The notes beneath the pieces were generated by a model that was given only the letters and a program-made list of their open reading frames with translations, did no database searches and was not told the DNA's origin. A program made the position numbers and the translations under genes. Below, piece by piece: positions 4,337 through 40,192 of a stretch of DNA of 64,000 nucleotides. The stretch lies in NCBI GenBank assembly GCA_035490435.1, contig DATHEF010000044.1, positions 67,571 to 131,570 of the forward strand. The letters run 5' to 3'. The number at the start of each line of letters is the position of its first letter. The stretch's first letter is position 1. This DNA is from Thermoanaerobaculia bacterium. GTDB taxonomy: Bacteria > Acidobacteriota > Thermoanaerobaculia > Multivoradales > UBA5704.

Positions 4337-5243
4337 TTATCCCCGCCCCTGGGTGCGCGGGTGGCCCTGATGGGCGCGCTCGAGGACGAAGCCGATCATG
4401 GCGCCGGCGACGTCGACGCCGGTCGCCCCCTCGATCCCCTCAAGGCCGGGGGAGCTGTTGACCTCCAGCACCATCGGACCGTCCTTGGAAGGGATCATGT
4501 CCACCCCGGCGATGTTGAGGCCGAGCACCTCGGCGGCGTGGATCGCGGTCTGGACGTAGGCCTCCTCGAGCTCGACGCCGGCGGCGGTGCCGCCGCGGTG
4601 GAGATTGCTGCGGAACTCCCCCTCGCCGGCCTGGCGCGCCATCGCAGCCACCACCTTGCCGCCGATGACGATGGCCCGGTAGTCGGTGCCGTGCGCCTCC
4701 TCGATGAAGGCCTGGATCAGGATGTTCTGTCCCAGCGAGCTCATGGCGTCGAGCACCGATTCGGCCGATTTGGCCGACTCGGCCAGAATGACGCCCATCC
4801 CCTGCGTCCCCTCCAGCAGCTTGAGGATGACCGGCGCGCCGCCGACCCGGCGGATGGCCGAGCGCACGTCCTCGCGGCTGCGGGCGAAGGCGGTGGGCGG
4901 AATGCCGATGTCATAGCGCGAGAGCAGTTGCAGGCTGCGCAGCTTGTCGCGGCTGCGCGAGATCGCCTGGCTCTCGTTGGCGGGGAAGACCCCCATCATC
5001 TCGAACTGGCGCAGCACGGCGAGGCCGTAGAAGGTGATCGAGGCGCCGATGCGCGGCACCACCCCGTCGACGCCGGTCACCCGCTCGCCGTCGTGGAAGA
5101 CCTCCGGCCGCTTCTTCGACACCTTGACCACGCACCGCAGCGGGTCGAGCACCGCCACGTCGGCGCCCCGCTGGCGGCAGGCCTCGATCAGGCGCGAGGT
5201 CGAGTACAAGGTCGCCTTGCGCGACAGGATGGCAATCTTCATC
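4337..5243 (-). CDS. rimK: RimK-family ATP-grasp alpha-L-glutamate ligase
   Basis: MKIAILSRK... ATP-grasp fold. Track ORF 4337..5731 is an artificial in-frame fusion with the upstream gene; ATG at 5243 overlaps upstream stop (ATGA). Confidence 0.9.
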
Positions 5244-9220: not shown

Positions 9221-9310
9221 AGGAGGGGATTGTAAGACCTGTCCGCGACGGTCCGTCGTCCCGAGAAAATTCTCCGTCGTCTCGGGAGATGGAGCGTCGC
9301 CGCTAGAGGA

Positions 9311-10585
9311 TTAAGGAATCTCGAGAGCCTCCTCCAGTATCCCCAGCGCCGCTGCGAGCTGCTCCTCGTTCACCGTCAGCGGCGGCACGAGCTGCGCGAC
9401 CCGCCCTTCCGGCCCGCCGGCGAGGAGGAGGACGCCCCGCGACCAGGCGGCGAGCATCCACTTCTTTGCGATCTCGGCCGTGCGGAACTGGACCCCCCAG
9501 AGGAGTCCCCGGCCGCGAACCTCCTCGATAGCGGGGAAGCGCTCCGGCCAGGTGGCGAGGCGCCGGCCGAAAATCTCGCCGAGGCGGGCGGCGCGGGCGG
9601 GGAGGTCCTCGTCCCGCAGGACGTCCATCGTCGCGAGGGCGGCGGCGCAGGCGAGCGGGTTGGCGAGGAAGGTGGCGGTGTGGCGCGCCTCGCCCGGGGT
9701 CTCCCAGCAGCGGAAGAGCTCGCGGCGGGCGACCACCGCGGCGATCGGCAGTCCGCCTCCCAGCGCCTTGCCGCAGCAGAGAATGTCCGGCCGCACACCC
9801 TCGTGCTCGACGGCGAAGCGGCGCCCCGTGCGTCCGAAGCCGGTGAAGATCTCGTCCGCGATCAGCAGCGTGCCGCGCCGCCGGCAGATTTCCGCCAGCC
9901 CCGCGAGCCAGCCGGCAGGAGGGATCAGCACCCCCTCGCGGCCGACGATCGGCTCGACGATCGCGGCACCGATCTCCTCACTCCCCAGGATCTCCGCCAC
10001 CCGCTCCAGATCGCCGCCGAAGGGGAGCCGGCGGACGTGCCCGTGGAGGTGGGCGGCGAAGGGGGCGCGGAACTCCTCCCGCGAGGTGACGTTGAGCGCC
10101 CCGAGCGTCGTGCCGTGATAGGAGGGCTCGAAGGCGAGGATACCCGGCCTGCCGGTGGCGCCGAGGGCGGTCTTCAGGGCGATCTCGACCGCCTCGGCGC
10201 CGGAGATCGCGAAGAAGACTCGCGGCTCGTCGACCGGCGCGATCTCCACCAAGCGCCGCGCGAGCTCGACGCGCAGCGGATGGGCCATCACGTCCCCCAG
10301 GGCATGGAGGAGATGGCCGGCCTGCTCGCGCACCGCCGCCACCATCCGCGGATGGCGATGGCCGACCGCCGCGACGCCGAAGCCCGAGGTGAGGTCTATA
10401 TAGATGTTGCCGTCGACGTCGCGGACGTTGGCGCCCCGCGCCTCTTCCCAGAGGATCGCGGGCTCTCCACCCACGAGCGTGTTGATCCCGGGGGCCTCGA
10501 ACCGTCCGAGGGCTGCCGACAGCTCGCGCGAGCGCGGCCCGGGGGGCGGGACGACGATCTCGGGGGGGAGGTCGCCGAAAGTCAC
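9311..10585 (-). CDS. Class III PLP-dependent aminotransferase (acetylornithine/GABA aminotransferase family)
   Basis: Motifs DVDGNIYIDL, LLIADEIFTGFGRTG, PDILCCGKALGGG (PLP lysine); GTG start overlapping recR stop (GTGA). Confidence 0.85.
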   Translation of the reverse strand: MTFGDLPPEIVVPPPGPRSRELSAALGRFEAPGINTLVGGEPAILWEEARGANVRDVDGNIYIDLTSGFGVAAVGHRHPRMVAAVREQAGHLLHALGDVMAHPLRVELARRLVEIAPVDEPRVFFAISGAEAVEIALKTALGATGRPGILAFEPSYHGTTLGALNVTSREEFRAPFAAHLHGHVRRLPFGGDLERVAEILGSEEIGAAIVEPIVGREGVLIPPAGWLAGLAEICRRRGTLLIADEIFTGFGRTGRRFAVEHEGVRPDILCCGKALGGGLPIAAVVARRELFRCWETPGEARHTATFLANPLACAAALATMDVLRDEDLPARAARLGEIFGRRLATWPERFPAIEEVRGRGLLWGVQFRTAEIAKKWMLAAWSRGVLLLAGGPEGRVAQLVPPLTVNEEQLAAALGILEEALEIP

Positions 10586-13352: not shown

Positions 13353-13535
13353 TGGGCCACTGCAAGGCCCTCATGCTATGTCGTGGGATCTGGGAAGTAA
13401 AGAACACGGTACGGCAGGTCCAACCCCTGGGGTGGCGGGAGGAATTCCCTGAGCACTTTGAGCCCCGCGGTTTTGCGCCGCGGAAATTCTCGGGTAACAT
13501 ACGCGTTCCCGTTTGGGCGGGGGCGGTGGCATCTC

Positions 13536-14000
13536 TTGGAAAGACCCGAAGATCAGGTCTGGATGATGGAAGCCCTCGCCGAGGCGAGGCGAGCCGCCGG
13601 GATCGGTGAAGTGCCGATCGGGGCGGTGGTGGTCCGGGACGGGGTGGTGGTGGGGAGAGGCCACAATCGCCGCGAGACCGACGGCGACCCGCTGGCGCAC
13701 GCCGAGATCCTGGCGATCCGGCAGGCGGCATCGGTCGCCGGCGGATGGCGGCTCGCCGGGTGCACGATGTACGTGACCCTCGAGCCGTGCGCCATGTGCG
13801 CCGGAGCCCTGGTCAACAGCCGCGTCGAGCGGCTGGTCTACGGGGCGCCCGATCCGAAGGCCGGCTACTGCGGCACCCTGGGCAACGTGGTCCAGGACCC
13901 GCGGTTGAACCACCGGCTGGAAGTGATGGCCGGCGTGATGGAGAGTGAGAGCGCCGCGCTGTTGCGCGGCTTCTTCGCGTCGCTGCGGCGCAGGCCGTGA
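13536..14000 (+). CDS. tadA: tRNA adenosine(34) deaminase TadA
   Basis: CDA fold motifs HAEILAI and TLEPCAMCAGAL; start uncertain (TTG 13536 or ATG 13563). Confidence 0.88.
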   Translation: MERPEDQVWMMEALAEARRAAGIGEVPIGAVVVRDGVVVGRGHNRRETDGDPLAHAEILAIRQAASVAGGWRLAGCTMYVTLEPCAMCAGALVNSRVERLVYGAPDPKAGYCGTLGNVVQDPRLNHRLEVMAGVMESESAALLRGFFASLRRRP

Positions 14001-14024
14001 GCGGCAGGGTTCTTTGGAAGGATC

Positions 14025-14114
14025 GGGAGAGATGTCCGAGTGGCTTAAGGAGCACGCTTGGAAAGCGTGTGTAGGGGAAACTCTACCGTGGGTTCGAATC
14101 CCACTCTCTCCGCC
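14025..14114 (+). tRNA. tRNA-Ser (anticodon GGA)
   Basis: Cloverleaf with long variable arm, anticodon loop TTGGAAA, T-arm GTGGGTTCGAATCCCAC, CCA encoded. Confidence 0.85.
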
Positions 14115-14137
14115 ATCGATCTCAAACGTAAGACAAC

Positions 14138-14227
14138 CGGAGAGGTGCCAGAGCGGTCGAATGGGGCGGTCTCGAAAACCGTTGACCGGGCAACCGGTCC
14201 GTGGGTTCGAATCCCACCCTCTCCGCC
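14138..14227 (+). tRNA. tRNA-Ser (anticodon CGA)
   Basis: Anticodon stem GCGGT/ACCGT, loop CTCGAAA, long variable arm, identical T-arm, CCA encoded. Confidence 0.85.
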
Positions 14228-14382
14228 ATTCGCTGTTTCGTCTGCCGCTGAAGGACGGGCGTCCTTGACGTACTCCCCTGCGGTGCAATACTTTACGGGT
14301 TTCGTTCCAACCGAGCGGGCGGTTCCGGACCAGCCGGCGGTCCCGCGATCCATGACCTCGACTTCGAAGAAGGCGGCCACAC

Positions 14383-14517
14383 GTGAAACGGACTTTTCAG
14401 CCCAACAACCGTCGGCGCAAGCGGACCCACGGCTTCCTGGTGCGCATGCGCACCCGCAACGGTCGCGCGGTGATCGCGCGGCGGCGCCAGAAGGGACGCA
14501 AGCGCCTGAGCGTCTGA
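14383..14517 (+). CDS. rpmH: 50S ribosomal protein L34
   Basis: GTG start; translation [44 protein letters not shown] (44 aa); absent from ORF track. Confidence 0.9.
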
Positions 14518-14921
14518 TGGCGGGCGATCGTCTCCCGCCGGGGCCTATCGCGGGCGCGGCGGGCGAACGCCTGACCTCTGAAGAGAGACTGCGGCGACGG
14601 AAGGATTACCTCGGCTGCTATCGCACAGGTCGCAGACGGCACGGATCGTTCGCCATCCTCTACTTCGTTCCAAATCAGCTCGGGCATCCCCGGATTGGAA
14701 TCACCGCCAGCCGGAAGGTCGGCAAGGCGGTGGTGCGTCACCGGCTCAAGCGCAGGATCAAAGAGGTCTACCGGCGATGGCAGGACCGCGGCAGCCTCCC
14801 CGCTCTCGACCTGGTGGTCCATCTCAAGCCGGAAGCCGGCAAGAGCGACTTTCCGGCGCTGCGGGCGGAGCTGCTGCGGCTGTTTGGGGGCCTGCGCGAG
14901 CGGCGGGAGCCGGCCAGATGA
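14517..14921 (+). CDS. rnpA: Ribonuclease P protein component
   Basis: ATG overlaps rpmH stop (TGATG); RNR-motif [23 protein letters not shown]; only this part of track ORF 14058..14921 is coding. Confidence 0.88.
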
Positions 14922-15124
14922 CGCGCCTGCTCATCTACCTGCTCGGCGTCTACAAACGGCGCCTCTCGCCGCTGCTGCCGCGCTCCTGCCGGTTCACTCC
15001 GACCTGCTCCGAATATGCCCGCCTCGCCATTCTCAAGCACGGCCCCTGGCGCGGCGGGTTTCTCACCGCGGGCCGGCTGATGCGCTGCCAACCCTTTCAT
15101 CCGGGCGGTCTCGACCTGCCGTAG
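14918..15124 (+). CDS. yidD: Membrane protein insertion efficiency factor YidD
   Basis: 68 aa; [32 protein letters not shown]; overlaps rnpA stop (ATGA). Confidence 0.88.
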
Positions 15125-15175
15125 CGCGGCCCCGAGCCCCCGTAGACATACGAACGAAAAGGACTCTGAATCCCC

Positions 15176-16897
15176 GTGGAAACTCGCCGGTTGCTCCTTG
15201 CCTTCGTGCTCTCGCTGGCGGTCATCGCCATCTGGTACACCCTCTTTCCGCCGGCGAAGCCGAAGCCGCCGGAGCCGCCGGCGGCCCAGAGCCGGCAGGC
15301 GGCACCCGCCCCCGCGCCGGAGGCTCCTTCGGTGCCGCCGGCTGCCGCCGCCGTTCCGGGCCAGCCCGCGCCGGCGACGGCGGTCGCCGCCGCTCCTCCG
15401 GTCGCGGCGGCGGCCGAGGAGAAGGTTACCCTCCAGTCCGGCCGGACCGTCGCGGTGTTCACCAACCGGGGCGCGCAGCTCCTCTCGCTGATGGCGCCGG
15501 AGAAGTCGGACCCGAAGAGCGGCGTCCTGGAGCTGGTGCGCCAGCGGACAGGCCTCGATTATCCTTACTCCCTCTACTCCCTCGCCGCCGACGGCCTCCA
15601 GCCGAGTCCTCTGAACCAGGCGTTGTTCAGGACCGAGCGAGGGACGGACGGCCGCTCGGTTACTTTTCGTTACAGCGATCCGCTCATGGCCGCCGAGAAG
15701 ACCTTCCGGTTCGACGACCGGGGGTTCCTGGTGGCCGACGTCCGGGACGTCCGGGTTTCTGGTCGCGCCGACTGGGGTCTCTTGATCGGCCCTGGCGTGC
15801 GCAACCCGTCGGCCGAGGAGATGAAGAGCCGCTACGAGCACCGGCGGGCCGTCTACAAGGCCGGCGGCGACTACGAGACCGTCGACGCGGGCAGCACGTT
15901 CGACCCTGTCGACATCCCCGGGCGCTCGCTCGCCTGGGTGGGGATCGGGGACACCTATTACCTTTCGGCCGTGGTTCCGCAGGTGGCGGTCGACCGCGCG
16001 ATCCTCGTGCCCCTGATGGTGGAGATCGGCGACAAGGGGGGCGCGGCGAAGTTCCTGCCGGTGCCGGGCAAGGACCGGATCTCCAGTGATGAGAAGAAGC
16101 TCCCTCGCGAATTCGTTGCCATCCTGCGGCCGGCCGGGAACCACATGGCGCTCGCCTCCTACTGGGGAGCGAAGGATTACAACCGGCTGAAGGCCCTCCC
16201 CTACGGCCTTGACGAGACGATCGAGCTCGGCACCCTCAAGCCGCTGGTAGTGCCGCTCCTCATCGCCCTGCACTGGATCCACGACAACATCGTCGCCAAC
16301 TATGGATGGGCGATCGTGCTGCTGACGATCCTGATCAAGCTGGTGCTCCTGCCGCTGACCCACCGCAGCACGATGTCGATGCGGAAGATGCAGGACTTGA
16401 ACCCCAAGGTGCAGGCGGTTCGCGACCGCTACCGGCAGAAGCTGCGCGACAAGGCGGGCAAGCCGAACCTCGAGGCGCAGCGCAAGATGAACGAGGAGGT
16501 GATGGGCATCTATAAGGAGGCGGGGGTGAACCCCGCGGGCGGCTGCCTGCCGCTGCTCATTCAGATGCCGATTCTGTTCGCCTTCTACCGCCTGCTGTCG
16601 ACGGCGGTCGACCTGCGCCACGCGCCCTGGCTCCTGTGGATCCAGGACCTGTCGGCCTATGACCACTATTACGTGCTGCCGATCATCATGGGCGTCACGC
16701 AGCTCATCCAGGTCCGCATGGGGCCGCAGGCGGGCGATCCGATGCAGCGGCGGATGTTCCAGATCATGCCGGTGGCGATGACCTTCTTCTTCCTCGGCGT
16801 TCCCAGCGGGCTGGTGCTCTACTGGCTCACCAACAACGTCTTGACCATCATCCAACTTCAGGTTTACAACACTCTGCGGAAGCGGGAAGCAGCGTGA
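15176..16897 (+). CDS. yidC: Membrane protein insertase YidC
   Basis: N-terminal TM, large periplasmic domain, conserved C-terminal 5-TM core; GTG start. Confidence 0.92.
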   Translation: METRRLLLAFVLSLAVIAIWYTLFPPAKPKPPEPPAAQSRQAAPAPAPEAPSVPPAAAAVPGQPAPATAVAAAPPVAAAAEEKVTLQSGRTVAVFTNRGAQLLSLMAPEKSDPKSGVLELVRQRTGLDYPYSLYSLAADGLQPSPLNQALFRTERGTDGRSVTFRYSDPLMAAEKTFRFDDRGFLVADVRDVRVSGRADWGLLIGPGVRNPSAEEMKSRYEHRRAVYKAGGDYETVDAGSTFDPVDIPGRSLAWVGIGDTYYLSAVVPQVAVDRAILVPLMVEIGDKGGAAKFLPVPGKDRISSDEKKLPREFVAILRPAGNHMALASYWGAKDYNRLKALPYGLDETIELGTLKPLVVPLLIALHWIHDNIVANYGWAIVLLTILIKLVLLPLTHRSTMSMRKMQDLNPKVQAVRDRYRQKLRDKAGKPNLEAQRKMNEEVMGIYKEAGVNPAGGCLPLLIQMPILFAFYRLLSTAVDLRHAPWLLWIQDLSAYDHYYVLPIIMGVTQLIQVRMGPQAGDPMQRRMFQIMPVAMTFFFLGVPSGLVLYWLTNNVLTIIQLQVYNTLRKREAA

Positions 16898-24386: not shown

Positions 24387-24746
24387 GGCGCGGCTACTGT
24401 ACCCGAAAGGCCGGCGCGCCGCAAAAGATCACGCGCGGCGCCAGATCCTTTGACATGTCGGCAAACGCCCGGCCCGCCTCGATTCGCGCCTCCCCAGCCC
24501 CGCTTCCCCGCCAGATCCTTTGACACCGGCCCCTTGAGCCGGAGTTCCGCATTTCCAAGCAAATCTTTTATTTCCAGCTAGTTAGATCCAGAACTGCCGC
24601 TTGGCAGGGCGCTTGATCTAGAGGGCTGGCGTCAACCCGAGAGGAGGTGGCGCCCAGAGAAGCGGAGCTGAAAAAGCAAACGGAAAGGGACCTCGACGAA
24701 CCGTCGCAAAACCAACGCATCACGGACAACCAAAAGGAGCATTCCC

Positions 24747-25172
24747 ATGAAGCATGCCCATCGCACCCATCGCACCCATCACGTCGTTGCCGGTCTGCTG
24801 GCCCTTGCCTTCCTCCTCAACACCCTGCCTGTTCAGGGCGCGGACGGCAAGAAGGTCAACATCAACAACGCCGACGCCTCGCAGCTCGCCCTGCTGCCGC
24901 GGGTCGGCCCGAGCGTCGCCGGCCGCATCGTCGACTACCGCAAGCAGAACGGCGGGTTCAAGAAGGCCGAAGACCTGATGTTGGTGCAGGGGATCGGCGA
25001 AAAGACCTTCGAGCTCATCAAGCCCTACGTCGCGACCGCCGGCGAGACGACGTTGCGGGAGAAAGTCAAAGGCAGCCGCTCCGCCTCCTCTCCTTCCTCT
25101 CCCAAGTCCGGCGGCGGTAAGCCCGACTCCAAGCCTGCCGCCAAGCCGGACAAGCCGGAGTCGTCCCGCTGA
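24747..25172 (+). CDS. comEA: ComEA-family helix-hairpin-helix DNA-binding protein
   Basis: Signal peptide; NINNADASQLALLPRVGPSVAGRIVDYR HhH pair; terminator-like GC hairpin after stop (25175..25215). Confidence 0.85.
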   Translation: MKHAHRTHRTHHVVAGLLALAFLLNTLPVQGADGKKVNINNADASQLALLPRVGPSVAGRIVDYRKQNGGFKKAEDLMLVQGIGEKTFELIKPYVATAGETTLREKVKGSRSASSPSSPKSGGGKPDSKPAAKPDKPESSR

Positions 25173-25235
25173 AGAGCGCCGGGCGGGCGGGGCCTGGAGC
25201 TCCGCCCCGCCCGGGCTTCTTGCCGAGGCCGTGCC

Positions 25236-25832
25236 ATGACCTCCCATGCGAAAGGCTTTCAACTGGCGGAGCTCACCGTCGCCCTGGCGGTGCTCGCCTT
25301 CCTCGTGACTCTTGGGGTGCCGCCGCTGCTGCGGTCCTCCGGCGACCTGCGGCTGCGGCTGGCCACGGGCGAGCTGATGGGCGTCCTGCAACTGGCCCGT
25401 TCCTGGGCCGTGCGGCACAGCGCCAACGTGGCGGTGAAGTTCCGCACCGCCCGGGACGGCGTGGTCACCTATACCCTCTATCGTGACGGCGACGGCGATG
25501 GCGTGCTCAACCGCGACATCGACGCCGGTGTGGACCCGCAGGTCGAGCCGCCGCGGCGGCTCTCCAACCTCGGGCGCGGCTTCGGCTTCGGTTTCCCGCC
25601 CGGACCGCCGGTGCCGGACCCCGGCTCGCCCGGGCACCGGGTGCCGACGAGCGATCCGATCCGCTTCAACCAGTCCGATCTCGCCTCGTTCAGTCCGCTG
25701 GGGACCTCGACTCCCGGCTCGCTCTACCTGAGCGACGGCCTGCGGCGGCTCGCCGTCGTGCGCGTCGCCAACAACGCCGGCAGGATGCGGGTCTACACCT
25801 ACGATCCCGAGCGGCGGGCCTGGCGTGATTGA
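25236..25832 (+). CDS. Prepilin-type N-terminal cleavage/methylation domain protein (GspH/FimT-like pseudopilin)
   Basis: N-terminus KGFQLAELTVALAVLAFL (G/F cleavage motif with Glu+5). Confidence 0.7.
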   Translation: MTSHAKGFQLAELTVALAVLAFLVTLGVPPLLRSSGDLRLRLATGELMGVLQLARSWAVRHSANVAVKFRTARDGVVTYTLYRDGDGDGVLNRDIDAGVDPQVEPPRRLSNLGRGFGFGFPPGPPVPDPGSPGHRVPTSDPIRFNQSDLASFSPLGTSTPGSLYLSDGLRRLAVVRVANNAGRMRVYTYDPERRAWRD

Positions 25833-29033: not shown

Positions 29034-29512
29034 AAATTGCCAAAGAACCGTACTGCCTGCAGCAGTATAAACCAGGATGGGGCTAAGGAGATTCCCTCCG
29101 AGCTTGCCGTGCCTCAGGAAGTCCTTGAGACGCCTCGCCGGGAGCTTGCGTGAGCGCGGTCAAGCCTGATCGCCGGGCGCCGGGTCTATCACGAGACGTC
29201 ACAAGGTTGGACGGGTGCCAAACAAGCGAGGCGTGAACCGCCTCACGCTTGCCTCCTCTCTGCCCAGGCTTAAAATCGGTCGCCGCGAGCTTGGCGTGCG
29301 ACGTTCCGGGCTCGACGCTGAGCGCCCCGAGCTTGAACGCGCCGGCGTAAGCCTCCTCGTCCTCGTCTCAAGCTTGAATCCTGCGTGAAATCCCTGGCGT
29401 GAAGCGAGAGATCCTCGGTAAGGTCCGCCTCAAGCCTGCCCGGAGCGCCGCGAAGCTCGATGCGTCACGTCTCAGGCTTGGCCGTGCCGCCGCAAGCTCG
29501 CCGCGTGACGTC

Positions 29513-29965
29513 TCAAGCGCCTTCGGGAACGTCTTCGCGCGCCGCTACGGCTTCCAGGAACTCGTCCGGGCCGCTGGTGCGCAGGCGTGAGATCACCAGG
29601 AACCAGCCGCCGAGGGCGATCAGGGCGCCGAAGGGGGCCACCTGCAGCAGGCCGGGAAAGAAGGGCCAGAAAACGGTGAGCAGGCCGCCCGCGGTGGCGA
29701 GGAGGAGGATCACCACAGCCTGGGTCTGGACGTGATAGATCGCCGTCTCCGGCCGGAAGATCAGCCGCGAGCCCCCCTCGGCCGGCAGGATCTCGATGTC
29801 GCCGCTGACGAGGCCCCGGCGGAGCCCCGCGAGAACCGGAAGGTGAAGCTTCACAACCGCGCCGTCCTCCTGGAGCTCGGCCCCCAGGTTCTCGGCCGTC
29901 CGCCGAAGGGACGAGAGGGCCTCCGCCGGAGGGACGTCCATGTCGATCGCGTGCTCCACCACCAT
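29513..29965 (-). CDS. Hypothetical small membrane protein downstream of dus
   Basis: 150 aa, C-terminal TMs; no recognisable family. Confidence 0.45.
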   Translation of the reverse strand: MVVEHAIDMDVPPAEALSSLRRTAENLGAELQEDGAVVKLHLPVLAGLRRGLVSGDIEILPAEGGSRLIFRPETAIYHVQTQAVVILLLATAGGLLTVFWPFFPGLLQVAPFGALIALGGWFLVISRLRTSGPDEFLEAVAAREDVPEGA

Positions 29966-35979: not shown

Positions 35980-36681
35980 ATGTATCACAAGCTCTCGACG
36001 TCTCTGCTCGCCGAGTTCATCGGCACCTTCGCGCTGATCTTCATCGGCGCCGGCGCCGGGGCCTTAGGGGCCGGACTGGTCGGGGTTGCCCTGGCCCACG
36101 GTCTGGTGGTCCTGGGCTTCGCCTATGCCTACGGCCACATCTCGGGCACACACATCAATCCGGCGGTGACCCTGGGGGTCTGGGCGGCCGGCAAGATCGA
36201 CACCGCGCGCGCCGGCTCCTACATCGTCTTCCAGCTCGTCGGCGGCATCGTCGGCGCGCTGGCGCTGCGCTGGGTGCTCGGCGGCACGGGGACCGGCCTG
36301 GGGTTGACCCAGCTCGCCCGCGGCCTCGAGGTGAACGGCACGTCGATCACCATCACGCCGCTCATCGGCATGGTCCTCGAGGCGATCCTGACCTTTTTCC
36401 TGGTCAACGCGGTGCTGAACGCCGGCATCAGCGGCAAGGCGACGATACCCGGCGGCCTCGCGATCGGCCTGACGCTGACCTTCTGCATCCTGATGGGCGG
36501 CCCGCTGACCGGCGCCAGCCTCAACCCGGCCCGCAGCATCGGCCCCGCGCTCGCGACCGGCAACTTCGACAATCTCTGGGTCTACCTGATCGGGCCGGTC
36601 CTGGGCGGCATCCTCGCCGGCGTGCTCTACAAGTACATCTTCGAGGAGCGGGAGATCCACAAGGCGGCCCGGAAGAAGTAG
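35980..36681 (+). CDS. aqpZ: Aquaporin Z / MIP-family channel
   Basis: Two NPA boxes (HINPAVT, LNPARS), 6 TM. Confidence 0.9.
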   Translation: MYHKLSTSLLAEFIGTFALIFIGAGAGALGAGLVGVALAHGLVVLGFAYAYGHISGTHINPAVTLGVWAAGKIDTARAGSYIVFQLVGGIVGALALRWVLGGTGTGLGLTQLARGLEVNGTSITITPLIGMVLEAILTFFLVNAVLNAGISGKATIPGGLAIGLTLTFCILMGGPLTGASLNPARSIGPALATGNFDNLWVYLIGPVLGGILAGVLYKYIFEEREIHKAARKK

Positions 36682-36687
36682 GCTCGC

Positions 36688-36730
36688 CCGTGAACAGGGC
36701 CGCTCGCGCGGGGCGGCCCTGTTCCCTATA
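36688..36730 (+). terminator. GC hairpin terminator after aqpZ (GAACAGGGCCGC...GCGGCCCTGTTC)
   Basis: 12-bp perfect inverted repeat; weak T tract. Confidence 0.5.
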
Positions 36731-36738
36731 CTTCAACC

Positions 36739-37035
36739 ATGAGCGCTCCATTCGAGACCCTAGTCATCCCGCTATATAAGGACGAGCACGGCGTGATTCG
36801 GGTGGCTGGTACCTGGGTCACTCTGGACTCTGTAATCTATTCGTTTCAGGAAGGCTCGACGGCTGAACAGATTCTCGAGGATTACCCGAGCCTGGGATTG
36901 GCAGACGTCTATGCTGTGATCGGCTACTACCTCCGCCATCAGGAAGAGGTCGACGCCTACCTCAGAGAGCAGAGCCGGCAGGCCGAGGAAGTACGCCGGC
37001 AGGACGAAGCGAGATTCTACCGGCAGGGAATCTAA
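36739..37035 (+). CDS. DUF433 domain protein
   Basis: C-terminal half matches DUF433 (GTWVTLDSVIYSFQEGSTAEQILEDYPSLGLADVYAVIGYY); first gene of low-GC island. Confidence 0.75.
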   Translation: MSAPFETLVIPLYKDEHGVIRVAGTWVTLDSVIYSFQEGSTAEQILEDYPSLGLADVYAVIGYYLRHQEEVDAYLREQSRQAEEVRRQDEARFYRQGI

Positions 37036-37232
37036 GGTCTGCTGGCGCGCGGCTCGTCAAGGCCATCGAGTTCCTACTAATATGGAAACGCCCTAAAGTG
37101 AAGAGAACCTCGGGAGAAGCCCGTCTGCCTAACCCTCAGCTTCGAGGAGAGGGTGAGGGGGTTGCTACAGGTGAAGGTGGGGCCAAGCGGAGAGACACAG
37201 AAGAAACGCGCACCTCCGGCGGAAAGCCGGTG

Positions 37233-37826
37233 ATGCAAGAAGAATCAGGTGCGACCCCAACATACGTCCAACTAATGGAACTCTATAAGATAGCGGTCGA
37301 CGAGTACAGGTTCCAGGTGAACCTTAACGCACAGCGCTCACGTGACTATTTTGTCTTGAATTCGGCAATTATCGCCTCGGCGGTCGCGCTATTAGGCCAA
37401 AAAGCCAATATCTTGGCGGGATCGGTGTTTTCAGTGGGATTCCTGGTTGCTGTTATGACAGGGCTCGGGTTTCACACGCAGCACAACTATTATCGAGAGA
37501 CGCAGGCGACCAAGAGGCAATTGGAAAGCCGGCTGGGCATACAGGACGGCGTAGTGAAAACTACGCCGTCTGCTGGTAGCCTTCGTCGGCGAATCGGTAG
37601 CGTGACTCAGTTTAATTACAGTATAATTACTCTGCTCTGCTTGGTGAATATCCTGGGAGCGCTCTTTAGCTTCTCCATACTGCCCTTGCCAACCAAAAAG
37701 GCTCTGAAGGCTGCCGAGCCCACTATGAAGACTTCTCCGGCTTTAAAATCGCCACGGCTCCAGCCATCAGAATCTGCACCTCTCAAGCCCGTCAACCTGC
37801 CGGCTCCACGCGGATCCCGCCCCTAA
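37233..37826 (+). CDS. Hypothetical 3-TM membrane protein with short amphipathic N-terminal domain
   Basis: ATG at 37233 (MQEESG...); track GTG at 37098 adds a low-complexity Gly/Glu/Arg leader, likely non-coding; TMs at ~37390, 37430, 37620; ~50% GC. Confidence 0.55.
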   Translation: MQEESGATPTYVQLMELYKIAVDEYRFQVNLNAQRSRDYFVLNSAIIASAVALLGQKANILAGSVFSVGFLVAVMTGLGFHTQHNYYRETQATKRQLESRLGIQDGVVKTTPSAGSLRRRIGSVTQFNYSIITLLCLVNILGALFSFSILPLPTKKALKAAEPTMKTSPALKSPRLQPSESAPLKPVNLPAPRGSRP

Positions 37827-37844
37827 AGCGCGAGAGGGTCGCTG

Positions 37845-38375
37845 TCAGTCGGCTGCGGTTATGAGCCTGAGAGTCGAAAGATAGAAACGAAATAGGAAAC
37901 GGAACGTCTCGGTGAAGTCGCCCGGTGACCGGAGCATCCAGTCCTGAATCTTCGGTATGGGTTCGAATTGGAGACGTTCGATATGGTCTGGCTCGCCAAC
38001 AGCGACGATTGGAGCTGAGGTGAGGTAAAGGGTTATGAATTTCTTGGTGCCTTGGTCCAGCATGAACGCGCTTCCGAACTTAGTTAGCGGTGTTGTGACA
38101 CCGAGTTCTTCCTTTAGCCGTCTGACCGCCCCATCGAGGTATTGCTCTCCTGCGTTCAGGTACCCCGCAACCGAAGATCCCCACTTCAGGGGATTGCGGT
38201 CTCGATTCTTGCCAAGTTGTTGCAGTAATAGACAACCTTCGCTGTTGAAGGTAAAGATATGCACCACTCGGAATCCGGCCTGACGTTGAAAGACTTGGCC
38301 GCGGGGAATTTGGGCAATCGGCTTGTCGGCAGCATCCACCCAATCGATTAAAGAGGAACCGCTGGGTGCAGGCAT
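37845..38375 (-). CDS. NUDIX hydrolase
   Basis: Nudix box GYLNAGEQYLDGAVRRLKEELGV; AAGGGAG RBS 9 nt upstream of ATG; low GC. Confidence 0.8.
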   Translation of the reverse strand: MPAPSGSSLIDWVDAADKPIAQIPRGQVFQRQAGFRVVHIFTFNSEGCLLLQQLGKNRDRNPLKWGSSVAGYLNAGEQYLDGAVRRLKEELGVTTPLTKFGSAFMLDQGTKKFITLYLTSAPIVAVGEPDHIERLQFEPIPKIQDWMLRSPGDFTETFRFLFRFYLSTLRLITAAD

Positions 38376-38404
38376 CGTTATAGCTCCCTTCGGTCTTGGT
38401 GCAC

Positions 38405-38698
38405 CTACTTACCCCACGCTATGGACTGCTTCTCCGGCTCTTCGCTCTCAGGACGGGGGAAGCTATAAAGCTTGGCTCCTCCGCCTCGCCGTTCCTGAAG
38501 AAATGCCTCTTGGGTCAAACCTAGAGCACGGTGCTCTTCAGTATGGTGCTCTAGCCACTCTCGGACGATCCGACCGACCAGAGAATTTTCACTGGTCTCG
38601 AACCCAAGCTCTATGAGTTTCGCCAAGACCCATTTATCGTAGTGGGCGCTCCAACCCTGAATCTTTATCCCTCGGTCTTTCGCCCTACGATCAGCCAC
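38405..38698 (-). CDS. Putative ribbon-helix-helix (CopG/Arc-like) DNA-binding protein
   Basis: Beta-alpha-alpha pattern GIKIQGW / HYDKWVLAKLIELGF / ENSLVGRIVREWLEHH; GTG start abutting a perfect palindrome; no SD, so call is tentative. Confidence 0.45.
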   Translation of the reverse strand: MADRRAKDRGIKIQGWSAHYDKWVLAKLIELGFETSENSLVGRIVREWLEHHTEEHRALGLTQEAFLQERRGGGAKLYSFPRPESEEPEKQSIAWGK

Positions 38699-38724
38699 GT
38701 TGTTGATCGTATATGATCAACAAC
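38699..38724. promoter_or_regulatory. Perfect 10-bp inverted repeat GTTGTTGATC-GTATAT-GATCAACAAC immediately upstream of the RHH gene
   Basis: Read directly; candidate operator or hairpin. Confidence 0.5.
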
Positions 38725-38761
38725 ACAGCGTCAATGCCATAGCTCTCTCCGGGTCGGGATC

Positions 38762-40192
38762 TCACTCCCCCGGCCGCGGCAGCACGTCCGGCCACCACCC
38801 TCCGGGAACGTTCACGGGCCACGGGCAGGTCTGCTGGATGTGCAACTCGCGGAACATCGGGCTGTCGTAGCGGAGGTTGAAGCCGAAGCCGTCCTTGCCG
38901 GTGTGGCCGCCGCAACGGTACTGCGAGCCGCCGAGAGCCATGGTGACGAGGAAGACGATCGCCGCGACGGTGTAGATCCGGGTCGCGGTCAGGATCCGCG
39001 GCGCCAGGCGGGACCGGCTGAGCGCGCCCGCCCAGAGGATCACCGGCAGGATGGCCGCGTGGAGCAGGATCAACCCCTGCCACATCATGACTGTCGTCGG
39101 CGAGAGCGCGTAGACGATCACCGCCGCGGCGAAGCAGACCCGCGCGTACCCCGCGAGCCAGGAGCGGCCGGTCGTGCCGGGAGCGAGCTTCCGCCCCCAG
39201 AGCCACTGGAACCATGGTTTCCGGCGCCCCCTCCGGCGCCAGAGATAGAGGTTCGCGAGCAAGGGGATGACGAGGGTGACGCCGAGCGCCTGACCGAGGC
39301 GGGTGAGCCCGGGACCCAGCCAGGGGTCGGAGCCGAGAAGGTCCGAGAAGTTGAAGTCCCCGATCCTCTCCGCGACCGAGAGCGAGGCGTAGCGCAGCCA
39401 GTACAGAAGGCCGCGCGCCAGCGGGAAGACGAGGATCAGGCCGCGCCCGAGGAACCCCTTGCTGGCCTCGGTGACGATGGCGGGATGGGCCGTGACCTCG
39501 ATCGCCCAGGGGACCAGCGGGATCGCCGCGACCAGCCCGCCGAGGAATCCCCCCGTCCAGTGCACCCGGAAGTACCGGCGCCACCAGAGCAGCAGCGAGG
39601 CAACCGCCAGCAGCAGGCAGGACGGGTGGATCTGGAACGCCAGTCCCAGCCCGGCGGCGTGCAGGAAGGAGGGCCAGAAGCGCGCGCGCTCGCGCTGGAC
39701 GAGAGCGCTCCAGAGGTGGATCGCTCCGGCCAGAAAGAGATAGTTCGGGTTCCAGAGGAACGAGGCGAAGTAGAGCTGCCAGGGGTTCAGCCAGTAGAGG
39801 AGAGCGAGCAGCACCCGCTCGTGGGGGGAGAGGATGCGCTTGAGCGTGCCGTCCAGGATCAGGTAGGCGAGGGCGTGGAAGAGCAGCACGAGGGCGCTCG
39901 CCGCCCGGTGGTCCCGCCAGAGGAAGAGCGGCAGGCCGACCAGCAGGCTGGTGATCCCCCCCGGCGCCTTGCCCCCCGTGGACAGCGGGTTGCCGTAGGA
40001 GATCCAGTGCCCCTTCGCGGCCAGCAGCCAGCCGCGGGCGAGGAGGTTGAGCTGGTCGCCCGCCACCTGGCTGCGGGCGAGCATCAGGAGGGCGATCGCC
40101 AGCCCGATGGCGAAGAGAGTCCAGACGATGCGGGACGCGGCCGCCGGTGTGAGCCGGTGGCTGGTGAGCCGAGGGATGACCGGAGCGCTCAT
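38762..40192 (-). CDS. Polytopic membrane protein, possible GT-C-type glycosyltransferase (PMT/ArnT-like)
   Basis: >=10 predicted TMs, aromatic-rich loops; TTG at 40219 is an alternative start to ATG at 40192. Confidence 0.55.
   Translation of the reverse strand: MSAPVIPRLTSHRLTPAAASRIVWTLFAIGLAIALLMLARSQVAGDQLNLLARGWLLAAKGHWISYGNPLSTGGKAPGGITSLLVGLPLFLWRDHRAASALVLLFHALAYLILDGTLKRILSPHERVLLALLYWLNPWQLYFASFLWNPNYLFLAGAIHLWSALVQRERARFWPSFLHAAGLGLAFQIHPSCLLLAVASLLLWWRRYFRVHWTGGFLGGLVAAIPLVPWAIEVTAHPAIVTEASKGFLGRGLILVFPLARGLLYWLRYASLSVAERIGDFNFSDLLGSDPWLGPGLTRLGQALGVTLVIPLLANLYLWRRRGRRKPWFQWLWGRKLAPGTTGRSWLAGYARVCFAAAVIVYALSPTTVMMWQGLILLHAAILPVILWAGALSRSRLAPRILTATRIYTVAAIVFLVTMALGGSQYRCGGHTGKDGFGFNLRYDSPMFRELHIQQTCPWPVNVPGGWWPDVLPRPGE

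Follow-up and report, generated by a model that had tools for sequence, protein, structure and literature searches.

A low-GC stretch of a Thermoanaerobaculia genome appears to combine an orphan DUF433 antitoxin gene with a relocating NUDIX-8xMP cassette

Introduction

A 64,000-nucleotide stretch of DNA from a Thermoanaerobaculia bacterium (Acidobacteriota), hereafter called the window, contains about 2 kb of GC-poor DNA between aqpZ and the gene for a 476-amino-acid PMT_2-like membrane protein that we refer to as GT476. This DNA codes for four small proteins, namely a DUF433 protein, a membrane protein of the 8xMP family, a NUDIX-fold protein and a 97-amino-acid protein, p97, that resembles ribbon-helix-helix (RHH) regulators. 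An initial annotation read the four genes as one horizontally acquired toxin-antitoxin or defence island that might be silenced by a nearby H-NS homologue. The question raised by this locus is whether the four genes do belong to one system and, if they do not, which of them belong together, how they came to this place and what they might do. Our answer, which is built on comparison with related loci, is that the low-GC stretch is a composite of a leftover DUF433 antitoxin gene and a three-gene cassette (p97, NUDIX and 8xMP) that is predicted to regulate itself. We put the probability of the full explanation, which covers this composite origin, a NUDIX+8xMP unit, its inferred working as effector and controller, and its local relocation, at roughly 60%.

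Results

NUDIX and 8xMP are inherited as a pair

Close homologues of the NUDIX protein (71-81% identical) on other Thermoanaerobaculia contigs are located in different chromosomal contexts and again have an 8xMP gene tail-to-tail with them, and 12 of 17 close 8xMP homologues are found on contigs equal in length to the contig of a NUDIX homologue. The same neighbour is seen in more distant loci. Specifically, a metagenome scan with the NUDIX alignment yielded 80 further loci (40-71% identical; partner called by a local hidden Markov model), and 8xMP adjoins NUDIX in 78 of the 80 with enough downstream sequence, 68 times as the co-directional downstream gene and 10 times convergently. The Pfam model PF24838 ('octameric membrane protein family, 8xMP') independently matched 43 of 44 NUDIX-linked partner open reading frames (ORFs), with a best match of 6e-16. 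Where the two genes are co-directional the stop-to-start distance lies between -35 and +33 nt, and overlaps of 4 nt are frequent. Between the pairwise-identity matrices of the two proteins the correlation is r=0.80 over 36 loci, a value that none of 2000 permutations reached. The convergent arrangement constitutes one clade that includes the window, with 8xMP proteins at least 51% identical to that of the window as compared to at most 41% for those of co-directional loci.

As judged from these neighbourhoods and alignments, NUDIX and 8xMP are a real unit, a near-obligate and co-inherited pair of soil bacteria that is usually arranged as what looks like a translationally coupled operon. The pair is common in soil Acidobacteriota and occurs also in at least one Acidimicrobiales genome, and we found no description of this pairing in the literature, though both domain families are catalogued. 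The initial annotation had instead regarded the RHH-like protein and NUDIX as the pair, a view that does not survive the comparison since most NUDIX+8xMP loci lack p97. The same applies to its grouping of all four genes into one system, as the DUF433 gene is the relic of a separate pair and elsewhere never accompanies the other genes. In a single case (L066:888-1880) NUDIX and 8xMP share one uninterrupted frame, which could reflect a true fusion or else an error of assembly.

The cassette stands in place of a toxin gene

The GC content of region 36735-38760 is 0.545 versus 0.687 across the remaining window, making it the GC minimum among the 2-kb windows of the 64 kb (mean 0.682, standard deviation 0.033; the runner-up elsewhere is 0.618). 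Inside the region, 100-nt windows have GC contents of 0.44-0.66 and 300-nt windows 0.51-0.60. GC at third codon positions is 0.57-0.58 in the p97, NUDIX and 8xMP genes, 0.69 in the DUF433 gene and 0.89-0.96 in the flanking aqpZ, SDR, GT476 and CBM9-like genes. The GC scan and the codon positions thus agree with the earlier report of a low-GC island of about 2 kb, and the genes and perfect palindrome reported from it are all present.

A scan with GT476 returned 36 loci from Acidobacteriota/Thermoanaerobaculia metagenome-assembled genomes (56-96% identical), and the comparison of the gap between aqpZ and GT476 rests on the 31 of these in which both genes are present. The gap is empty in 16 of them, with aqpZ and GT476 12-137 bp apart, and these include L010 and L012 (96% and 93% GT476 identity), the nearest relatives with both flanking genes. 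A DUF433 orthologue that is 52-84% identical to the one in the window lies beside aqpZ in 12 others; in nine of these it is followed by a partner ORF of 115-117 amino acids, while in three it is alone. All four partner ORFs that were scanned match the PIN-like family DUF5615 (Pfam E=1e-12 to 1e-8). The gap of two relatives contains other cargo, which in L045 (11434-12968) comprises an HTH_37 gene, a DSP-type phosphatase (Pfam Tc-R-P, 'polymorphic toxin system') and an 81-amino-acid ORF, and in L040 (11492-12346) a 284-amino-acid protein with no family match; one further relative, L043, is ambiguous. On this comparison the aqpZ-GT476 gap is a cargo hotspot. NUDIX, 8xMP and p97 are absent from all 36 GT476 loci and occur at this site only in L001-L009, which are contigs identical to the window that were found in several metagenomes.

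The DUF433 gene of the window still has a clear family match (PF04255, residues 17-64, 41.4 bits versus a cut-off of 23.6) and codes for 98 amino acids as compared to 108-130 in the relatives. The alignment reads ATC-CGC-GAA in the relatives and ATC-TAA in the window, where about 10-19 C-terminal codons were lost through this TAA. Homology with L011 as detected by blastn extends to 37061, and the alignment fades by about 37090. When L011, L039, L017 and L019 are considered together, homology ends at 37053-37062 and restarts at 38749-38761, shortly before the GT476 stop codon. These breakpoints, at about 37062 and 38748, indicate that a segment of about 1.65 kb has replaced the DUF5615 gene. 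As reconstructed from the alignments, the gap held a DUF433-DUF5615 toxin-antitoxin pair in this lineage and the cassette supplanted DUF5615 in the window strain. We regard the structural and evolutionary account as a whole as very probably correct.

The initial annotation had rightly noted that the DUF433 gene is without its canonical partner; no DUF5615/PIN-like toxin gene is adjacent to it in the window, and DUF5615 is present at the same site in relatives. Orphan DUF433 genes without DUF5615 were also observed at L017:2567-2899, L019:11475-11801 and L023:11512-11847, with L019 keeping the final codons (KVLYLPL) of the deleted toxin gene. Given these three further loci toxin loss is recurrent here, and the DUF433 remnant is in itself ordinary. 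What the locus does provide is a clean case of a toxin gene swapped for unrelated cargo with the orphan antitoxin left behind.

The cassette occupies five sites of one backbone

In relatives the cassette is found at four further sites between genes of the same syntenic backbone of about 30 kb, which makes five sites when that of the window is counted (sites A to E in Table 1); the context is unrelated in L137/L138 only. Protein homology was the sole criterion by which these loci were retrieved, and for each of them the chance of synteny with a 64-kb window of a genome of about 7 Mb is about 1%. NUDIX is 70-81% identical between Thermoanaerobaculia genomes whose backbone proteins are 77-92% identical, and cassette DNA is 68-71% identical versus 70-85% for the backbone. 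No terminal direct or inverted repeats were found at the cassette borders, no integrase or transposase ORF is present at 36.7-38.8 kb of the window, and an Rfam scan of 36600-38900 gave no match at E<=1. Across six loci there are also no conserved cassette ends and no conserved non-coding element upstream of 8xMP, with only the leaders of the window and L136 being similar. The most economical reading of this synteny is a long-resident cassette that relocates locally without a recombinase of its own. Alternatively, the distribution could have been produced by differential loss of old paralogues or by repeated exchange between relatives. We also observed that the segment 28759-29050 of the window, which ends where site E begins, is conserved with L136 at the protein level (75-88%, tblastx) and that no gene is called there in the identical contig L006.

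The low GC content is not peculiar to the window. In 35 of 36 distinct loci whose flanks extend over at least 2 kb, the GC content of the pair is below that of the flanks (mean difference -0.062, Wilcoxon p=3e-9), with both genes contributing. Since the pair is GC-poor in nearly every lineage and, in this clade, stays in one syntenic neighbourhood with a divergence near that of the backbone, its low GC content is no proof of recent import. The earlier claim of horizontal acquisition is therefore upheld as regards the atypical composition and the absence of the cassette from this site in close relatives, and is not upheld as regards recent import, as low GC is a trait of the pair and neither mobility genes nor repeats are present. 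A recombinase-free cassette found at five sites is relevant to the question of how small accessory modules change place in genomes with few recognisable mobile elements.

p97 and its predicted operator

The p97 gene initiates with GTG and ends 29 nt ahead of the NUDIX ATG. It is rare, with 12 homologues among 1.84 billion representatives, and accompanies NUDIX in four of six p97 contexts, being upstream and co-directional in the window, in L056, in L135 and in the P0097/P0028 locus; in L135 and the P0097 locus the p97 stop and NUDIX start overlap (ATGA-type). The putative RHH ORF with its GTG abutting a perfect palindrome and NUDIX some 30 bp further on was therefore correctly described at the outset, and it is a conserved gene that lies upstream of NUDIX in three other loci. 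The p97 family profile has as its best match in the PDB the ParD RHH antitoxin 5CEG, at a marginal E=0.05 with residues 1-78 aligned to 1-78. An AlphaFold2 (AF2) model of the monomer shows a coil-helix-helix-helix arrangement as expected for an RHH monomer, with a low confidence (pLDDT 66).

The palindrome GTTGTTGATC-GTATAT-GATCAACAAC covers exactly 38699-38724. Its core GATCRTATAYGATC occurs once in the window versus 0.00 expected occurrences, and there is no second copy of the motif in the window, including ahead of 8xMP. The sequence GATC-RTATAY-GATC is located directly ahead of the start codon in five independent p97-family loci, in all of which it is 16-18 nt downstream of a TTGAC motif, and the outer arms of these palindromes differ yet stay complementary (GTTGTT/AACAAC, GGGG/CCCC, AAGGG/CCCTT, GGTAG/CTACC). 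In the window the -10 element of the p97 promoter is inside the palindrome and the GTG follows 7 nt after it, an arrangement that is repeated in L046 (TTGACG-17-TATGAT-6-ATG) and L133 (TTGACA-17-TATGAT-9-GTG). With transcription starting where these promoters predict, the p97 mRNA is probably leaderless or near-leaderless, which explains the missing Shine-Dalgarno sequence. We interpret the palindrome as a conserved predicted operator on a consensus-like promoter to which p97 would bind. The RHH-like repressor and its operator are new to the literature only as a member of an otherwise familiar type.

Several p97-family loci contain other genes. In L046 (1025-4065) a p97 homologue that shares this promoter and palindrome is followed by a different set of low-GC genes (59, 267, 276 and 299 amino acids, no Pfam match recorded), and in L133 a p97 homologue is beside a pyrF-like gene, without NUDIX. 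Regulators of the p97 type appear to be reused for other accessory cargo. In addition, the 219-amino-acid protein P0100 joins a p97-like domain to a circularly permuted YpsA (cpYpsA) SLOG domain (Pfam 2e-37), which ties the p97 DNA-binding family to a nucleotide-ligand-sensing domain.

When the flanks of 26 distinct larger pair loci are analyzed, the sole recurrent neighbour family is an XRE-type helix-turn-helix (HTH) protein (HTH_3/HTH_26/HTH_31) encoded divergently and immediately upstream of NUDIX. An ORF of about 160 amino acids with a faint MraZ match takes the place of the regulator in part of the Thermoanaerobaculia clade. The regulators of NUDIX+8xMP are, by their family matches, interchangeable, and include RHH-like, XRE and possibly MraZ-like proteins. 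The NUDIX gene at site A in L047 has no adjacent regulator and is preceded (4895-4935) by TTGACG-17-TACCAT, whose hexamers enclose a CCCAGGaCCTGGG palindrome, an operator-like element that differs from that of p97.

Features of the NUDIX and 8xMP proteins

The NUDIX protein matches PF00293 with 41.4 bits versus a cut-off of 21.1. Its ATG is preceded at 8 nt by an AAGGGAG Shine-Dalgarno sequence, and its stop codon is separated by 18 nt from that of the convergent 8xMP gene. The nearest solved structures in profile matches are YfcD (2FKB, 3e-15) and DR_0079 (1Q27, 5e-13), followed by type 1 isopentenyl diphosphate (IPP) isomerase, IDI (1e-8). The Nudix box reads G71-x5-E77-x7-R85-R86-L-K-E89-E90-L-G-V, which departs from the canonical Gx5Ex7REUxEExGU in that the position of the first Glu in REUxEE is taken by R86, a residue conserved to at least 90% among 35 homologues. 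We therefore do not assume hydrolase activity. Of the 'canonical Nudix box and strong RBS' that the initial annotation had ascribed to this gene, the ribosome-binding site is thus retained and the canonical box is not (RRLKEE, with the Arg conserved subfamily-wide). A conserved aromatic C-terminal helix, FTETFRFLFRFY, is specific to the NUDIX subfamily and is absent from YfcD and DR_0079. The protein is also well below the NCBIfam equivalog cut-offs for YfcD (NF011922, 41.7 versus 152 bits) and type 1 IPP isomerase (NF002995, 35.8 versus 127). An IDI function was considered and rejected, as the WGSSVAGY segment does not have the catalytic Cys.

The membrane protein was initially described as having an amphipathic N-terminal segment, three transmembrane (TM) helices and no confident family. 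The topology is correct, and the family can be given, as PF24838 is matched with 34.4 bits versus a cut-off of 30. Specifically, an N-terminal amphipathic helix with the motif EYRFQ..LN..R is followed by two TM helices, a QHNYYRE...TTP loop, a third TM helix and a Pro-rich tail. The AF2 monomer has helices at 11-55, 59-101 and 124-149 (pLDDT 61). The positive-inside rule places both conserved motifs on the same face of the membrane, which is presumably the cytoplasmic one. Octameric assembly is implied by the name of the family only, the model obtained here being that of a monomer. Sequence and profile searches of the PDB gave chance matches only and no solved relative. Weak matches to DUF4231 (PF14015, E about 7e-4) were seen in two of 44 8xMP members, the window protein not being among them, and weak holin matches likewise in two of 44.

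An 8xMP start at GTG 37098 was rejected, since L136 uses another frame in the corresponding DNA, and alignment of homologues places the start at ATG 37233. The intervening 37098-37232 is a purine-rich leader of about 135 nt whose DNA is partly conserved with L136. Because it is read in another frame there, the leader is probably non-coding, and neither an Rfam match nor a recognisable promoter was found in it.

Features of the locus and the H-NS gene

The features of the locus are listed in Table 1. The H-NS-family gene was proposed at first as a neighbour that might silence the island. It is indeed located nearby, and a link to the island was rejected, as this is a core gene that at least 18 relatives have in the corresponding position (58-90% identical) whatever the aqpZ-GT476 gap contains, including when the site is empty. 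A genome-wide silencing of AT-rich DNA by H-NS is conceivable.

Table 1. Features of the low-GC stretch and cassette sites in the window
Feature	Position	Strand	Remarks
Terminator-like hairpin behind aqpZ	36692..36724	+	12-bp perfect stem, 9-nt loop; left edge of variable gap
Orphan DUF433 (COG2442-type antitoxin) gene	36739..37035	+	PF04255 E=1.3e-10; premature TAA shortens C-terminus
Decayed DUF433 3' end and start region of lost DUF5615 gene	37036..37090	+	Left breakpoint of replacement
Replacement segment of about 1.65 kb, three-gene cassette in place of relatives' DUF5615 gene	37062..38748		Homology breakpoints
8xMP-family membrane protein, 197 amino acids	37233..37826	+	PF24838, 34.4 bits; three hydrophobic helices
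NUDIX-fold protein, 176 amino acids	37845..38375	-	PF00293 E=1.7e-10
p97, small RHH-like protein, 97 amino acids, GTG start	38405..38698	-	Presumed autorepressor of p97-NUDIX transcript
Operator-like palindrome GTTGTTGATC-N6-GATCAACAAC	38699..38724		Core and covarying arms in five p97-family loci
Sigma-70-like promoter TTGACG-17-TACGAT	38706..38734	-	Promoter scan
H-NS-family gene (PF00816), 107 amino acids	43438-43761	-	4.7 kb from island
Site A, gap between AAA_28 and aminotransferase genes	9234..9329		NUDIX and 8xMP convergent in L047, L048, L049-L053; 95-bp gap in window
Site B, interval between Peptidase_S26 and CutA genes	24387..25828		p97-NUDIX convergent with 8xMP in L056, L135, P0097/P0028; ComEA-like and prepilin-like ORFs in window
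Site C, approximate	13409..13489		L052 pair 1.5 kb from DNA syntenic with window 13489-15867; empty in window
Site D	37.06-38.75 kb		Occupied in window
Site E, between IF-2B and Dus operon	29050..29526		160-amino-acid ORF and convergent NUDIX and 8xMP in L136; empty in window

Discussion

Proposed function and alternative explanations

We propose that p97 would bind the palindrome over its own -10 element and keep transcription of p97-NUDIX low. The cytosolic NUDIX protein, with its altered metal-binding box, would bind and slowly hydrolyse a nucleoside-diphosphate-X ligand, and via this ligand would control, or dock on, the conserved cytoplasmic face of an 8xMP oligomer, with 8xMP being a membrane-active effector. 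The cassette would then be a tightly repressed two-component module resembling toxin-antitoxin or abortive-infection systems and not a metabolic operon. This mechanism is tentative and, taken by itself, we consider it possible and somewhat short of probable. A toxin-antitoxin- or defence-like role is our best guess, and is favoured by the compact coupled operon, the XRE and RHH regulators, the atypical codon usage, the positional instability and the insertion into a toxin-antitoxin locus. The weak DUF4231 and holin matches are counted in favour of a toxin-antitoxin- or abortive-infection-like role, as is a copy from the IMG/VR collection (L140:3948-5552), in which an XRE-like ORF is divergent from NUDIX followed by 8xMP and a DNA methyltransferase, a phrog_2384 protein and a transposase (phrog_506) are alongside. 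Another IMG/VR contig (L139:4935-5420) has 8xMP without NUDIX, beside two small TM ORFs and a 303-amino-acid ORF.

Several observations weigh against this interpretation. The four window proteins have no significant match in PADLOC-DB 2.0, the flanks of the 26 pair loci gave scattered single matches only to the same database, and the neighbourhoods of the pair are mostly housekeeping (ParB, DnaA, recR/dnaX, Ddl) and not defence islands. A tblastn search of plasmid and phage collections with the window 8xMP found no match, and among 2.9 million viral contigs only two contain an 8xMP relative. Co-transcription of NUDIX and 8xMP has been lost in the convergent clade, which weakens a strict stoichiometric toxin-antitoxin logic. 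The assignment of p97 to the RHH class is weak, as Pfam gave no match for it and a Foldseek search of its model against the PDB gave none either. Finally, the backbone-like divergence of NUDIX fits long residence and vertical descent.

Many of the same observations would be expected if the pair has a housekeeping or stress function, with NUDIX being a membrane-associated pyrophosphatase (acting for example on CDP/CTP-type nucleotides, nucleotide-sugars or prenyl/lipid diphosphates), 8xMP its anchor, scaffold or substrate channel, the regulators tuning expression and the low GC content reflecting low expression or silencing. The nearest characterised relatives are indeed ordinary Nudix enzymes (YfcD, DR_0079) and IDI, the neighbourhoods are housekeeping ones, divergence within Thermoanaerobaculia is near that of the backbone, there are no matches to defence models and plasmid and phage collections are essentially devoid of the pair. 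A housekeeping function is harder to reconcile with a position that varies among close relatives, with the absence of the cassette from this site in 31 relatives, and with an atypical codon usage that persists in 35 of 36 lineages. The same can be said of dedicated XRE- and RHH-type regulators that are swapped between lineages, of the subfamily-wide replacement of the first Glu of REUxEE, of the absent IDI Cys, and of YfcD and IDI equivalog cut-offs that are missed by about 90-110 bits. We consider this explanation somewhat unlikely and yet a serious rival; were it true, our finding would reduce to an improvement of annotation.

The initial reading of DUF433, membrane protein, RHH protein and NUDIX as one acquired and perhaps H-NS-silenced toxin-antitoxin or defence island does have the low GC content of the entire 2 kb to its credit, as well as the occurrence of each component's class in toxin-antitoxin or defence loci and the H-NS-family gene 4.7 kb off. 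It is nevertheless very improbable, as DUF433 occurs without the other three genes in 12 relatives and these occur without DUF433 in over 80 loci, the breakpoints show that part of an older DUF433-DUF5615 pair was replaced, H-NS is kept in relatives with the empty site, and no mobility genes or terminal repeats were found. We give equally little credence to p97-NUDIX as a type II toxin-antitoxin system, in which p97, as a ParD-like RHH antitoxin, would bind a NUDIX toxin by its C-terminal tail and neutralize it, and 8xMP would be independent. The end-to-end alignment of the p97 profile with the 5CEG ParD, the p97-NUDIX spacing of 29 nt that becomes an overlap in L135 and the P0097 locus, and the predicted autoregulatory operator are all what such a system would exhibit. 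However, the pairing is not exclusive, as most NUDIX+8xMP loci are entirely without p97 and the p97 homologues of L046 and L133 are without NUDIX, and it is with 8xMP, not p97, that NUDIX co-varies and is always linked.

Our preferred explanation of a NUDIX+8xMP effector and controller in a relocating cassette can be extended to an undescribed but widespread conflict or stress module, in which a NUDIX protein with a crippled box senses or slowly destroys a nucleotide-derived ligand, gates an oligomeric membrane effector and relocates without a recombinase. In this complete form the proposal is unlikely; if true, it would entail an unknown, locally acting mechanism of cassette movement. In any case the pairing provides the uncharacterised PF24838 family and the uncharacterised NUDIX subfamily with a concrete partner and a testable hypothesis.

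Comparison with known systems

Among characterised proteins, YfcD (2FKB), DR_0079 (1Q27) and type 1 IPP isomerase share with the window protein the NUDIX fold and the same N-terminal extension, and are its best profile matches. YfcD and DR_0079 have the canonical R-E in the Nudix box where the window subfamily has R-R, and this subfamily also adds the C-terminal aromatic helix, is without the IDI Cys and is uniquely linked to 8xMP. A Nudix fold with a degenerate catalytic box that acts as a sensor is known from TRPM2, where the NUDT9-homology domain senses ADP-ribose and gates a membrane channel. TRPM2 serves here as a working analogy only, that of a Nudix module gating a channel; in this eukaryotic protein the two are fused into one polypeptide, the fold of the channel is unrelated, and homology is not claimed.

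p97 is similar to RHH antitoxin-repressors of the ParD/CopG/Arc type, such as the ParD of 5CEG, in its size, its N-terminal strand-like K-I/V-Q-G-W segment followed by two helices, its C-terminal extension, the palindrome over its own promoter and the position of its gene immediately before a cargo gene. It differs from them in that the similarity is marginal (E=0.05) and no Pfam RHH model is matched, that the cargo is NUDIX, unrelated or none, and that one of its homologues, P0100, carries a cpYpsA SLOG domain. DUF433/COG2442 proteins have been predicted to act as antitoxins to toxins of the PIN family (Makarova, Wolf & Koonin 2009, PMC2701414). The window gene is a clear DUF433 member whose orthologues in relatives are directly upstream of DUF5615, at the same site and in the antitoxin-toxin order of these pairs. 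In the window, by contrast, the toxin has been replaced by the cassette and the antitoxin shortened, leaving an orphan remnant and no working pair.

The effectors with SLATT/DUF4231 domains, which have two TM helices and belong to nucleotide-signalling conflict systems (PMC9503650), differ from 8xMP in that the latter has a third TM helix and forms a Pfam family of its own, PF24838. 8xMP also has NUDIX as its partner and not a TIR or SMODS nucleotide generator, and the cassette is without a signal-producing enzyme. Like these effectors and small holins, however, 8xMP is a small protein with an N-terminal amphipathic helix and a TM hairpin, and, as with SLATT/DUF4231 effectors, it is genetically coupled to a nucleotide-processing enzyme and often also to an HTH regulator.

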